This document shows positions 10,300 through 27,177 of a stretch of 64,000 nt of DNA, one piece after another; the first letter of the stretch is position 1; each line of letters begins with the position of its first letter. Under the pieces are notes generated by a model that saw only the letters and a program-made list of their open reading frames with translations, made no database searches and was not told the origin of the DNA. The DNA comes from a virus. Taxonomy: Duplodnaviria > Caudoviricetes. Location: positions 4,393 to 68,392 of IMG/VR virus record IMGVR_UViG_3300005764_000016. One strand, written 5' to 3'. Made by a program: the position numbers and the translations under genes.

Positions 10300-13200
10300 T
10301 CAGGACGCGGCTGCCTTCTGGCGCTGCTCCTTGGACAGCTCCGCGTAGTTGATCGTGGGCAAGTCGAGCACGTCGTCGTCGGCGTCCTCGGCCAGGGCGT
10401 TGCCGACGGGCCCGCCCGCCGCGCCCAAGAACAGGGCCGCCGGCTCGCGGTGGGTCACCTGGGGTGATGCCGTCCGCGGGACGATGGCCGTCAGCTGCTC
10501 CAGCTCGGCGATGCTCTTGCCCATGAGCATGTCGCCGGTGGCCCGACGCTGCTCGGGCTCGCCGACGTTGGCGACCAGGTAGCGCACCAGGGTCAGCTTG
10601 CGGTCGTACTCGGCCTTGCGCATGTTCTGCACGGCCGCGCGGACCTCGGCGGGTGCCCGGGTCTGGCGCATCCAGGCCTCCACGGCGGCGTTCTCGCTGA
10701 GCACGCCTTTTTTCTTGCCGCCCAGGCTGCCGCCGCCGACCTTGGCTCCGTCCTTGAGGGCGGGGGCTTCCTTGGAGCGGTACTCCGAATCCTCGCCTTC
10801 CTCGGACTCTTCCTCGCCGCCGGCCTGGTCGCTGGCCGAGCCGGAGCCGGACTCGTCGGACGTGTTCAGGATGGCCTGGAGCGCGTTGCGCGTGCCCGGG
10901 CACGAGCAGTTGCCGACCAGGCCGCGCAGCTTCGCCAACAGGGCTTGGGACATGGGGTTCTCCTCGTTCGTGGTTGCCAGGTGCATGGAGGCGGCCTTGC
11001 GGTGCATGGCGGCGGCGTCGTCGTGGACCTCGGCGCCGGCGCCGTCGCCGCGCTTGCGCGATTCCAGGGCGGCGGCTTCGTGGGCCTCGGCCGCCTTGCC
11101 GTGGGCGGCGGCGGCCTTCTTGGCGTCGCCCTCGCCGGAATGGTCCAGGGCCGACAGGGCGTGGCCGCGGCCACCGGCGTGCTCGGCCATGAGCGAGCGG
11201 CCGGCGGCGTGCTTCGACATGCCGTGGGCGTCGTCGGGCGCGTTGTAGGCCAGCATGGGTGCGGCTCCGTCTTGGTTTTCAGTGTCCACGGCCTCGTTCC
11301 TGGAGATGCCGCGGGCGTCGAGGTGGGCGCTCATGGCCTTGGCGCCCCGGTCGGACTTGCGCGCGTAGGCCGCGCCGCCGCCGCGGGTGTGGTCCCACTG
11401 GCCGTTGCTCCACACCGTGAGCCGGTCCCCGGAGGGATGTTCGAACTTCTGGTGGTTGCCGCCCTCGACCGTCTTCGTGAACCCTCGCTTCCGCGCCTCC
11501 TGGGCGGCGGCCCGGGCGGCGTCGCTCCAGTCGTTGGCAGTGATGCCCAGCTTGCGGCCGTACTCGGCCAGCTCGTCGGGCCCGTGCTTGGGGTTCTGGT
11601 GGTCGTCCGCCTGGGTGTCGAGGATGGCGTCGACGTCCTCGGGATCGTCGTCGTCCTGCTCCTCGTGCTCCAGCACGTCCAGGTTGCGGCCGTCCTTGCG
11701 CTTCTGGTAGCCTTCCAGCTTGGCCGGCGCCGTGGGATCGACGTGGGCGGCGGGATCGGCGGCGTTGCCGGTCGGGCATTCCTCGTCCTCGTCGTCGTAG
11801 CCGCGATCGGCGTGGCCCCTCTCGGCGGCGTTGGCCGGCTGGCCCTGGAACTGGCCGCTGGCCGGATGCCGCGGCTGGGGTGGCTCGCGGCTGGGATGGC
11901 GGATGTAGGTGCGCTGCTGCATGGCCTCCTGCGGGTAGCCCTGCTCGGGGGCCTGCGTCTCCTGGTCGCCGTCGCCGTTGGTCACGTTGTCGGAGAAGTG
12001 CCTGGCCTCGCTCGAGGCCTCGTGCTCGGGATGGCGGCGGTGCACCTGCTTGGCGGGGTTGAGGACCCCCCGGCCGGCGTGCTCGTAGCGCGGGGCCTTG
12101 GGCTCGCCGACGTTGTAGACCGCCCACTTGGCCTTGCCGTTGACCTCGACGCGCTCGGCCCGCTGGCCGGGTCCCAGGGCGGCGACGTCCACGGCGTCGT
12201 AGAGCTCGGCGTTGGCGGCCAGGGCTTTCTTCAGCGTCGCCTTGGCCTGCTTGCCGCCGCCCTTGCCGGACGCTCTCAGCCCCTTGCCGCCCTTGGTGGT
12301 CTTGCCCACGAACTCGCCCTCTTCCTCGGGCATGGCGTGCCGCTTGCCCGTGCCGGTGTGCTCGCCGTGGGCCCACGACTCGGCGATGTCGGGCTCGTTG
12401 GCCCACAGGTAGCGGCGCTGGGCCTCGCTGGCGAAGGGGTTGGTGGTGGGCGGCGCGCGGCCGTCCTCGTTGGCGACGCCGTGCAACCAGGACCAGAACT
12501 TTTGCACCAGACTCATGTTGGCCGTGGCTTTTTTGGGCAACTTGCTGGACTTCGTGTGCCGCTCCCACTCTTCGCAGTCCCAGTCGGGATCGTTGGCGGC
12601 ATAGCAGGCCCGCCGCTGCGCCTCCGAGACGAACGGGTTGGTCACGTACTCGTTGGAAGTCTGCCTCGGCGTAATCCGTCGAACTGCGACACCATGCGCG
12701 TTGGCGGCTTCCTGATGTGCGGCAGCAGCTTCTGTATGCCCTTGCGATTCGTGCCACTGCCGCATGGCAGAATGAGCAACCGCTGCCTCGAGGTGGGCGT
12801 CTCTGTCGGTTTTGGAAGCTGCAGCCGACGATCTCTCGTCAGCCGACCTAAGTATCCTCTCGGCGTGCTGAGGGCCCGCTGGAAGGGGATACTTTTCCAC
12901 CCCCACCTTCCGGGTGGCAGCGATCGCTTTCACCGAGGCTTTCCGGGCAGCCTGAGCGGCTTCCTTAACACCACCGCCGCCGCGCGTCTCCCACGCCTTC
13001 TTGGCACCCTCGCTGGTGTTCGATACCTGACGGTTGACCAGGATGCCGCAGCCGTCGGCGACCGAGCAGGCGCCGACCTGGTTGGGCAATACGGCAACGT
13101 GGTCGGGCCGATAGTTGCGGGCAATCTTCTCGTAAGGCCGGCCGCGATAGCTCGCCCCCACCGGGGCCGACTCCTTGTCCACGTAGAGGCCGGTGGACTG

Positions 13201-13602
13201 CTCGATGGCCTGGCCGCGTTCCAGGCGGTTCAGGATGTCGCTGCCGAACTTCTGATCCAGGGCCCGCGTCCGCTCCACGTCGAACCAGGCCTCGGCCGCC
13301 AGCTTGCCGTTGGCGAACGGCTTCTCGATCCAGCCTAGGCCCTGGTTGTCGATGACGCCTGGATCGTGGGCCGAGGCCGGCGCGCCCGACAAGGGATCGA
13401 CCGGATGGCCGTGCGTCAGCGGCATCCGGTCCCAGTCGCGGTAGTTGCGAGCGATCTCGACGGGGGGATAGTAGAGCGCGCCGTCGGAGCCGTTCAAGAC
13501 GCCGGGCACGATCAGGCTGGCCGGAGCGACGAGGTACTCGCGGCCGTCCCGCGTCTGCCGACGGGCGCGGCCCAGCCCGGCGTTCGTCAGGATCGCTTGC
13601 AT
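10300..13602 (-). CDS. DUF2213-type prohead protease fused to cargo peptides and scaffold
   Basis: N-terminus GREYLVAP..VPGVLNG, STGL, YRPDHVAVLPNQVGACSVADGCG; about 850 aa of Asn-delimited inserts; helical C-terminus. Confidence 0.8.
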   Translation of the reverse strand: MQAILTNAGLGRARRQTRDGREYLVAPASLIVPGVLNGSDGALYYPPVEIARNYRDWDRMPLTHGHPVDPLSGAPASAHDPGVIDNQGLGWIEKPFANGKLAAEAWFDVERTRALDQKFGSDILNRLERGQAIEQSTGLYVDKESAPVGASYRGRPYEKIARNYRPDHVAVLPNQVGACSVADGCGILVNRQVSNTSEGAKKAWETRGGGGVKEAAQAARKASVKAIAATRKVGVEKYPLPAGPQHAERILRSADERSSAAASKTDRDAHLEAAVAHSAMRQWHESQGHTEAAAAHQEAANAHGVAVRRITPRQTSNEYVTNPFVSEAQRRACYAANDPDWDCEEWERHTKSSKLPKKATANMSLVQKFWSWLHGVANEDGRAPPTTNPFASEAQRRYLWANEPDIAESWAHGEHTGTGKRHAMPEEEGEFVGKTTKGGKGLRASGKGGGKQAKATLKKALAANAELYDAVDVAALGPGQRAERVEVNGKAKWAVYNVGEPKAPRYEHAGRGVLNPAKQVHRRHPEHEASSEARHFSDNVTNGDGDQETQAPEQGYPQEAMQQRTYIRHPSREPPQPRHPASGQFQGQPANAAERGHADRGYDDEDEECPTGNAADPAAHVDPTAPAKLEGYQKRKDGRNLDVLEHEEQDDDDPEDVDAILDTQADDHQNPKHGPDELAEYGRKLGITANDWSDAARAAAQEARKRGFTKTVEGGNHQKFEHPSGDRLTVWSNGQWDHTRGGGAAYARKSDRGAKAMSAHLDARGISRNEAVDTENQDGAAPMLAYNAPDDAHGMSKHAAGRSLMAEHAGGRGHALSALDHSGEGDAKKAAAAHGKAAEAHEAAALESRKRGDGAGAEVHDDAAAMHRKAASMHLATTNEENPMSQALLAKLRGLVGNCSCPGTRNALQAILNTSDESGSGSASDQAGGEEESEEGEDSEYRSKEAPALKDGAKVGGGSLGGKKKGVLSENAAVEAWMRQTRAPAEVRAAVQNMRKAEYDRKLTLVRYLVANVGEPEQRRATGDMLMGKSIAELEQLTAIVPRTASPQVTHREPAALFLGAAGGPVGNALAEDADDDVLDLPTINYAELSKEQRQKAAAS

Positions 13603-13679
13603 CGCTCTCTAGCTGTAGTCAGGCGGTGCGCGAGATGTCTACGAGGAAAAGTGACGGAGGGGAAAATTTAAGCCCGCTT

Positions 13680-26522: not shown

Positions 26523-26523
26523 C

Positions 26524-27177
26524 TCACTCCTCCTCGTCGGCGTCGGTCGCCCACTCGATGTCCTCGTCGTCCTCGTCCCGATCCTCGTCGTCCTCCCGGC
26601 GAGCGTTGTAGAGCAGGTAGGCGGCCAGCTCGTCGTCGAGCCGGGCGTTGCCGGTGAAGGCCACGCCGCGGTGCTGGGTCTTGGGGAACTTGTTCATGAG
26701 CGTCAGCGCCATGCGGGCGGGCAGGCCGATGCGGAGCACGGGCATGGTCAGGTTGTCCTCCTGCTGGTGCTTCATCCAGTGGTGCGTCCCGTCCAGGACC
26801 CGGTTGTCCGAGGAAATCAGCACCGGCTTGTCCTTCTTGTCCGCCCACACGTGGGGCGTCATGGCGTCGACGCGGGCCTGGTCGTACTGCGTCTGCGTCG
26901 GCTTCAGGTCCAGCGTGCGGGCGGTTTCCTTTTCCACGGTCACGCCCTGCTTGCGGGCCCAGTTGACGAATTCCTTTTGGTCGCCGCGGGCGATCTGCGG
27001 CATGTCGATGCGCTCGAAGCCGAGATTGTTTTTCAGGTCGCGCACGTCGCTCTCGGGCGCAGCCTCTCGTTTGCGCTCGCGGCTCTCCCAGGCCTTCTTG
27101 GCGGCCTCGGTGTCGTTGACGACCAGCGACCGGCCCATGTAAATCACGTCGCCGAAGAGGTTCATGGCTGCTCCCAC
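26524..27177 (-). CDS. ParB/Srx-like domain protein with KAW motif and acidic tail
   Basis: LKPTQ..PVLISSDNRVLDGTHHW; NDTEAAKKAWESR at the N-terminus. Confidence 0.65.
   Translation of the reverse strand: MGAAMNLFGDVIYMGRSLVVNDTEAAKKAWESRERKREAAPESDVRDLKNNLGFERIDMPQIARGDQKEFVNWARKQGVTVEKETARTLDLKPTQTQYDQARVDAMTPHVWADKKDKPVLISSDNRVLDGTHHWMKHQQEDNLTMPVLRIGLPARMALTLMNKFPKTQHRGVAFTGNARLDDELAAYLLYNARREDDEDRDEDDEDIEWATDADEEE

Follow-up and report, generated by a model that had tools for sequence, protein, structure and literature searches.

A portable KAW peptide recurs at module borders in the head proteins of a DUF2213-protease phage and in phage polyvalent proteins

Here we describe a short recurrent peptide, the KAW tag, in the head genes of a tailed phage (Caudoviricetes). 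The DNA analyzed, referred to as the window, is a stretch of 64,000 nucleotides (nt) covering positions 4,393 to 68,392 of the IMG/VR virus record IMGVR_UViG_3300005764_000016. The window constitutes most of this 68,392-bp viral record (CheckV completeness 94%; guanine plus cytosine (GC) content 66%). The peptide has the form N-x-x-E-[AG]-x-x-K-A-W-[ED]-x-R and occurs in five copies, all on the minus strand, in three genes of the head block. A sequence-only reading of the window had reported these five peptides as the heads of modules in three head genes. All five are present, with Asn codons that start exactly at 13020, 19286, 17915, 16586 and 27117, and in each of the three genes the copies follow an Asn and stand at a module border. 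The genes and the tags, with amino acid (aa) positions and scores against a core hidden Markov model (HMM), are the following.

10300-13602, minus: P0001, protease-scaffold protein, 1100 aa
12982..13020, minus: KAW copy 1, NTSEGAKKAWETR, P0001 aa 195-207, 35.5 bits
15834-19544, minus: P0002, MuF polyvalent protein, 1236 aa
19248..19286, minus: KAW copy 2, NTREAALKAWETR, P0002 aa 87-99, 33.2 bits
17877..17915, minus: KAW copy 3, NDSEAAKKAWDTR, P0002 aa 544-556, 30.5 bits
16548..16586, minus: KAW copy 4, NTREASLKAWDAR, P0002 aa 987-999, 29.1 bits
26524-27165, minus: ParB-like gene, ATG at 27165
27118..27165, minus: N-terminal leader MNLFGDVIYMGRSLVV of the ParB-like gene, ATG at 27165, upstream ribosome-binding site GGGAG
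27079..27117, minus: KAW copy 5, NDTEAAKKAWESR, ParB-like protein aa 17-29 counted from the ATG at 27165, 29.6 bits

Each copy heads a different module. Copy 1 lies 5 residues past the end of the protease domain of P0001 and heads a scaffold-like part of ~890 aa. Copy 2 heads aa 100-543 of P0002 (nt 17916-19247), a GNAT/C39-like module, an assignment to be taken as a lead only. Copy 3 heads an unassigned domain together with the MuF/SPP1 gp7 domain (P0002 aa 557-986, nt 16587-17876), where PF04233 (aa 805-907), phrog_758 (aa 678-923) and TIGR01641 match. Copy 4 heads a PI3/PI4-kinase-like module (P0002 aa 1000-1236, nt 15837-16547) with matches to PF00454 (aa 1097-1166) and a TIGR03843-like model. 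Copy 5 heads a ParB/Srx-like module (nt ~26656-27054; phrog_2859 match), which is followed by an acidic tail. Long acidic runs are present in the head proteins of this phage.

Translation in six frames gives 5 matches to the pattern N..[ED][AG]..[KR]AW[ED].R; the mean over 200 triplet shuffles is 0.0. With the core HMM the five copies score 29-35 bits, and the best other match in the window reaches 6.6 bits. Across the full record of 68,392 bp, a profile search recovered these five copies and no sixth. Synonymous codons vary from copy to copy, so that conservation acts on the peptide and does not reflect a recent DNA repeat. Chance origin and a DNA repeat were both ruled out by the zero copies in the shuffles and by the differing codons. 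The sequence-only reading had counted one more peptide, NDWSDAARAAAQEAR (P0001 aa 690, nt ~11535), as a variant copy. This candidate was rejected because it has no score with the KAW model and belongs to a distinct peptide family, N-x-W-[ST]-D-[AE]-A-R.

Copy 5 is preceded by an N-terminal leader, MNLFGDVIYMGRSLVV, which resembles the MNLxxTIxL leaders ahead of the tag in many unrelated proteins. The search for homologues of the ParB-like protein found just one of similar length, P0010 (71% identity). The leader and the tag are almost fully conserved between the two, and the next 15 residues, a linker, vary.

The tag is widespread. An initial profile built from the five window copies matched unrelated proteins. 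The main profile, built from 19 sequences and searched against 1.84 billion cluster representatives, matched 232 protein clusters at E<=1e-3 and 20 at E<=1e-10. A locus search with the motif alignment gave 2 confirmed loci; tblastn is too strict for a 13-residue motif, and scans with DNA patterns were used instead. A scan of IMG/VR with a degenerate DNA pattern gave 26 stretches from genomes of 33-63% GC, each of which was in frame and had the flanks expected of the tag. A stricter Asn-Ala-Gly DNA pattern gave no matches. Overall the tag recurs in unrelated phages that span 33-66% GC, either at the N-terminus of unrelated modules or where domains join, which agrees with the portability proposed from the window. 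About half of the clusters are large proteins (250-3400 aa) with at least two copies. In 79 large proteins the spacing of copies is usually 100-600 aa, and the first copy is often found inside the first 10-35 residues.

The consensus from 220 instances is [GK]-[TR]-S-E-[AG]-A-x-K-A-W-[ED]-T-R-[RG], in which five positions are invariant. When the peptide is drawn as a helical wheel, a single face holds the invariant Ala, Trp and Arg and a nearly invariant Ala. The peptide is predicted to be a basic amphipathic helix, in which Glu and Lys can pair i/i+4. A second flavour, R-S-E-A-A-K-K-A-W-E-T-R-R, forms tandem arrays, and the five copies of the window fall between the two flavours.

No Pfam or NCBIfam model matches the tag, including in proteins that consist of the tag only, and a PDB sequence search with the tag profile gave no match. 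A search of papers for literal tag strings found nothing relevant, which is in keeping with the earlier suspicion that the tag is uncharacterized. In the parts of the polyvalent-protein paper (PMC5512222) covered by a term search, no junction linker or short motif is described. Within the reach of these searches, no earlier description was found of the tag peptide, of its use as internal punctuation, of its pairing with an Asn site or of a fold for DUF2213. Pfam PF22129 (CjCas9_WED-like) matches four tagged proteins and looks spurious. In P0007 the match (aa 150-162) abuts the tag, a placement that could mislead automatic annotation.

Some phages carry the tag in many proteins. A 76-kb contig of 39% GC (G001) has about ten open frames with tags, 15 matches in all. 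Its tagged proteins include one encoded a few genes downstream of the portal, and the head maturation protease itself. The head maturation protease of this contig has a protease domain at aa 10-278 (phrog_1028) and a tag at aa 338. In a BLAST comparison of this protease with P0001 the tag alone aligns. Thus the two head proteases both bear this peptide after the catalytic domain and have no further detectable similarity in sequence. A second contig, 120.7 kb long and with terminal repeats (G003), has 10 tag matches. One of its proteins (L031:10606-11682) contains a polyvalent/DarB-like/minor-head domain (aa 6-143), a tag at aa 148 and a ParB domain (aa 219-286). In another (L031:12947-14869), tags at aa 32, 303 and 444 bracket a ParB domain (aa 351-437) and a virion-structural domain (aa 517-637). 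P0008 combines an Acb1-like 2H phosphoesterase, two tags and a zeta toxin, and P0005 has four tags and a C-terminal ADP-ribosyltransferase (ART).

The domains of 68 large tag-bearing proteins were catalogued with Pfam and PHROG. The Pfam matches are to ART-PolyVal, zeta toxin, 2H, cytidylyltransferase, topoisomerase IB, PI3/4-kinase, GNAT, InPase, NUDIX, ubiquitin-like, ParB and SNF2 domains. The PHROG matches are to minor head proteins, the DUF2213-like phrog_760 (three members), head maturation protease and DarB-like antirestriction proteins. A leader plus tag of the form MNLxxTIxLxxxGTSEGAKKAWDTRGRG opens more than a dozen unrelated proteins, and the ParB-like gene of the window starts likewise. 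A motif-HMM survey had been suggested as a check on the peptide. Run as the profile search and this catalogue, it returned the 232 clusters and a set of tagged domains that is the polyvalent set. The tagged modules are typical injected or polyvalent effectors, which upholds the effector claim of the sequence-only reading.

P0002 itself fits the definition of a polyvalent protein, with a MuF domain (PF04233, TIGR01641) and a PI3/PI4-kinase-like domain in one polypeptide. MuF-fused effectors are reportedly treated by Jamet et al. in 2017. In the phage polyvalent proteins of Iyer et al. 2017 (PMC5512222), a single polypeptide of a phage or conjugative element joins at least two unrelated effector or structural domains. 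Their hallmark domains (ART-PolyVal, InPase, 2H, ParB, zeta toxin, SNF2 and MuF) are shared by the tag-bearing proteins found elsewhere. Where that paper deals with processing, it names zincin-like, assemblin-like and other peptidases (PMC5512222); relative to that account, the recurrent junction peptide and the Asn site are added here. The tagged proteins are probably cargo that phages carry in their capsids.

The protease ahead of copy 1 belongs to the DUF2213 family. The parts of P0001 that bear on its processing are listed below.

13033..13602, minus: DUF2213 prohead protease domain, P0001 aa 1-190; 629 homologues, some with PF09979 or named DUF2213
10300..12981, minus: scaffold-like low-complexity remainder of P0001, with further Asn-ended sites and a family-conserved C-terminal region (LxAN...)
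11845-11877, minus: QPRH..GQF tag, P0001 aa ~576-586, one copy of Q-P-R-H-x3-G-Q-F
11485-11541, minus: WSDAAR tag, ITAN-DWSDAARAAAQEARKRG, P0001 aa 688-706, of the form N-x-W-[ST]-D-[AE]-A-R

An AlphaFold2 model of the protease domain, made with a 46-sequence alignment, has a mean predicted local distance difference test (pLDDT) of 88.7. Compared through this model, the domain resembles T4 gp21 (5jbl_A) with Z 10.9 and a root-mean-square deviation of 3.2 over 137 aa, and the herpesvirus proteases with Z 6-7.4. Given these fold matches, DUF2213 as modelled is an assemblin-fold prohead protease. H66, S136, H168 and N190 are invariant among the 46 sequences, and the first three are candidate catalytic residues of the His-Ser-His type. 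The layout of P0001 is protease-linker-scaffold, as in herpes assemblin precursors. The protease domain ends in a near-invariant ...GACSxxDGCG-h-L-V-N, and the alignment of homologues is lost right after that Asn.

Other short peptides of the DUF2213 proteins also stand behind Asn. The Q-P-R-H-x3-G-Q-F peptide is present in 34 of 117 DUF2213 homologues, usually after x-N-A-G. Peptides of the forms N-Q-P-R-H-x3-G-Q-[YF] or P-R-D-x2-G-R-F are preceded by Asn in 31 of 36 cases. N-x-W-[ST]-D-[AE]-A-R occurs in 16 of 120 homologues, with up to 5 copies per protein and the Asn always two residues before the Trp. Another contig (G009) encodes a DUF2213 protein whose domain end and tag (GMPRLNEQHxNEGTSEGAVKGWETR) are duplicated 190 residues downstream.

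Smaller features of these proteins were noted in passing. The N-terminus of the DUF2213 proteins is M-x-x-L-x-A-N (P0001 aa 1-7, nt 13582-13602), in which Asn7 is nearly invariant and which has the L-x-A-N shape of the putative cut sites. P0001 aa ~315-400 (~12400-12660) contain two units of ~30 residues, N-P-F-x-S-E-A-Q-R-R...W..H, each right after an Asn (YVTN, PTTN). The string N-V-G-E-P is found three times (AVYNVGEPK, YLVANVGEPE, WIPANVGEPD), at P0001 aa ~507 and ~1027 and P0002 aa ~917, and the capsid protein (8392-9675) has VTINVGRW about 70 residues in. These strings may be further cut sites, including a propeptide site in the capsid protein. The DUF2213 protein L039 (G009:C1:15552-19052) carries two copies of G-S/L-G-N-F-G-H-x-G-x-P-G...GGS, another widespread short peptide. 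One copy is ahead of the protease domain and the other ahead of the repeated domain end and tag.

The five window tags are preceded by SLVVN, YYVLN, RITAN, LLVAN and RQVSN. Among the 88 Asn of the three tagged genes, 15 fit the site [ILVYFM][LVIT][VSLAGT]N; in the rest of the phage 12 of 381 do so (Fisher p=1e-5). In the extensions of 117 DUF2213 homologues the same site was observed 430 times against 55.6±8 in shuffled sequences, a count that is inflated by shared ancestry. In these extensions L or P is favoured at -3 and T or V at -2 from the Asn. Elsewhere the tag is generally preceded by G-T-S or K-R-S, and in G001, which has a different protease, by K/T-S/T-S and not by Asn. The sequence-only reading had treated Asn and helix as a single tag. 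That description holds for all five window copies and fails for the general tag, which lacks the Asn. The Asn looks like a separate element, part of an L/I-V/T-x-N site that is characteristic of DUF2213-protease phages.

We propose that a two-part junction would mark the head of each cargo module in proteins that are built into the phage head. The first part would be the hydrophobic-[V/T]-x-Asn site, a copy of the C-terminal end (...GCGhLVN) of the phage's own DUF2213 protease. The protease would cut after the Asn, as herpes assemblin cuts its own release and maturation sites. The second part would be the KAW peptide, S-E-[AG]-A-x-K-A-W-[ED]-T-R followed by Arg or Gly, serving as a portable basic amphipathic helix. 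Once cut free, each module would begin with a KAW helix, and so would the scaffold part of P0001. This helix would bind polyanions, the acidic scaffold or core stretches in the procapsid first and the packaged DNA later. Such binding would keep the modules in the capsid, and they would leave with the DNA. The joint model combines cleavage by the protease after Asn with retention in the capsid through a polyanion- or DNA-binding helix at the start of each released module; in our judgement it has about an even chance of being right as read from sequence. What the analysis itself shows is how the junctions are built, that the tag is portable and goes with head and polyvalent proteins, which fold the protease has as modelled, and that Asn sites are enriched.

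Several points weigh against this model. Cleavage, capsid loading and binding are all inferred rather than observed. The KAW tag is found in just P0001 among the 120 closest DUF2213 homologues, so it is not needed by this protease family. The Asn-site count in the homologues owes part of its size to common descent. In other viral contigs Asn-preceded tags occur with DUF2213 in 1/6 against 0/4 cases, a comparison with no statistical power as most of the contigs are fragments. Asn, Ser and Thr are all good helix N-caps, and the Asn could therefore merely cap the helix. AlphaFold2 confidence is low over the tag region, and the model of the ParB-like protein (2-sequence alignment) has a pLDDT of 36 and is unusable. 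In addition, the tag is found outside head genes too, and this speaks more for a general affinity for polyanions or DNA than for a dedicated capsid address.

The occurrences outside head genes qualify the placement proposed from the window, which is accurate for the five copies there; elsewhere the tag is not confined to head genes. Tandem KAW copies form the C-terminal tails of the GIY-YIG endonuclease P0118, of HNH endonucleases (P0077 and L023, the latter phrog_314) and of Gp37/Gp68 proteins. P0118 has about five copies and variants, counted by eye, and P0077 has 2 copies. Very basic proteins of 40-200 aa hold tandem KAW arrays, and the small ones consist of 2-5 copies. One tagged gene adjoins a DNA polymerase gene and another lies between the terminase and portal genes on the opposite strand. 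Homing endonuclease tails of this kind are DNA-binding parts, and the simplest activity shared by all tags would thus be binding of DNA or another polyanion.

This evidence speaks for a purely nucleic-acid-binding, NUMOD-like helix that acts inside the infected cell, with the Asn as a helix cap and with no part in cutting or loading. The tandem copies in P0118, P0077, L023 and the Gp37/Gp68 tails, the small basic proteins and the tagged gene beside the DNA polymerase gene are all as this explanation would have them. NUMOD3-type motifs are reportedly short DNA-binding motifs of homing endonucleases (Sitbon and Pietrokovski are said to have described them in 2003). The KAW tag is like NUMOD3 in being a short helical S-E-x-x-x-K-x-hydrophobic motif and in forming tandem repeats in GIY-YIG and HNH endonuclease tails. 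It differs in the Trp and the T-R-R/G-R-G ending, which are specific to KAW, and its DNA binding is putative. The Pfam NUMOD models had no match in P0118 or P0077 (E<=1) nor in P0011 (E<=0.01). Moreover, DNA enzymes are a minority among the tagged modules, which include kinases, GNAT, ART, zeta toxin and a head protease; the tag is placed strictly at module heads with a conserved N-terminal leader ahead, and the Asn sites are enriched well beyond the tags. We consider this explanation unlikely. An AT-hook was also considered for the basic ending of the tag and rejected, as the tags lack the R-G-R-P core: they end in T-R-G-R-G or T-R-R-R-K without a following Pro.

A second alternative places the cut in the tag itself. 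The protease would cut after the invariant Glu, and the hydrophobic leader upstream would be a removable capsid-targeting peptide similar to the capsid targeting sequence (CTS) of T4. Cleavage after a Glu is known from T4 gp21, with the site L/I-x-E, and from giant-phage proteases, with S/A/G-x-E. In the 220 instances the Glu is invariant with T/S-S or similar small residues before it. The DUF2213 fold is closest to that of T4 gp21, leaders such as MNLxxTIxL...GTSE resemble a short removable signal, and the tag occurs with at least two protease families. However, the K-A-W..T-R beyond such a cut is equally conserved and would be unneeded for a simple P-side site. Cleavage sites repeated in tandem would serve no purpose in endonuclease tails and small proteins, and the statistics of the Asn sites are left unexplained. 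A cut at the Glu therefore seems quite improbable. The weakest alternative, a neutral and well-tolerated linker helix that is a convenient joint for module shuffling with no role in binding or processing, would account for a tag that is always between independently folding modules in very different phages and many architectures, but it is very doubtful given five invariant positions and a conserved helix face across genomes of 33-66% GC with differing codons, and given a leader and tag nearly 100% conserved between P0006 and P0010 beside a varying linker, where a neutral linker would drift.

The proposed junction of Asn site and KAW helix has parallels in two further known systems. The T4 CTS is carried by the internal proteins IPI-III and Alt and is removed by the gp21 prohead protease (PMC3012670). 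Like the CTS, the KAW tag is a short peptide on otherwise unrelated, often anti-defence, proteins, which travel in the capsid in T4 and are putatively packaged in the case of KAW. Both are N-terminal and linked to a prohead protease of the same fold. Sharing of the CTS type is seen in the MNLxxTIxL leader plus tag on >12 unrelated proteins and in the G001 contig with its many tagged frames. The two differ in that they have no sequence similarity and that KAW is also internal, between modules of one polypeptide, and found outside virion proteins. The CTS is a 10-residue hydrophobic/acidic peptide, whereas KAW is basic and helical. The tag consensus has no resemblance to the T4 CTS and its L/I-x-E cleavage site.

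The second parallel is with the herpesvirus assemblin precursor, which is organized as protease-linker-scaffold with release and maturation sites of the form V/L-x-A-S, cut between Ala and Ser. P0001 shares with it an assemblin-fold protease, a long scaffold-like region and a conserved C-terminal part. In both, a short conserved motif at the end of the protease domain recurs downstream. The putative P1 residue is Asn in P0001, where cleavage is predicted, and Ala in herpes. P0001 also has a far longer scaffold part, in which several types of tag occur.

A more general cargo grammar of tailed phages is possible, and we raise it tentatively. A site matched to the protease family of each phage (L/I-V/T-x-Asn in the case of DUF2213) and an interchangeable tag of ~15-20 residues might suffice to load any enzyme into a procapsid, cut it free and tie it to DNA for injection. 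As part of that reading the interchangeable tags would be KAW, QPRH..GQ[FY]/PRD..GRF, WSDAAR or GSGNFGHxGRPG. The choice and loading of capsid cargo for injected proteins are understood in very few model phages, chiefly through the T4 CTS. The KAW tag is short and portable, with a definable consensus, and is found on hundreds of protein families with anti-defence-type enzymes. If its function is confirmed, it would provide a signature by which virion-delivered effectors could be predicted from the sequences of uncultured phages, a way to read the cut points of polyvalent proteins and possibly a handle for packaging chosen proteins into capsids. The large DUF2213 family gains a fold assignment and a likely self-processing site.

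Close relatives of the window phage were not found in INPHARED. The remaining genes of the head region, which the capsid gene completes, are as follows.

29611-31212, minus: large terminase
27256..29319, minus: portal gene (PF06381, phrog_146)
20128-23172, minus: beta-helix protein
8392..9675, minus: major capsid protein (DUF6260)

The portal gene is directly upstream of the tagged ParB-like gene and shares its frame; the two are a single stop and 30 codons apart (27166-27258). Given its own GGGAG ribosome-binding site, the ParB-like gene is probably an independent gene, and it could be a former portal fusion. Read-through from the portal gene was set aside as unnecessary, since the ParB-like gene has this site and its own ATG and P0010 starts at the same Met. 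The N-terminal part of the portal (28450-29319) has an extra ~290 residues ahead of the portal domain, a part that no family model covers, and its C-terminal tail (27256-27420) is rich in Gly, Pro and Lys. The MuF gene and the protease-scaffold gene are separated by an inserted IS110-like/TIGR-Tas-type cassette (13680-15308; phrog_4285, PF02371).

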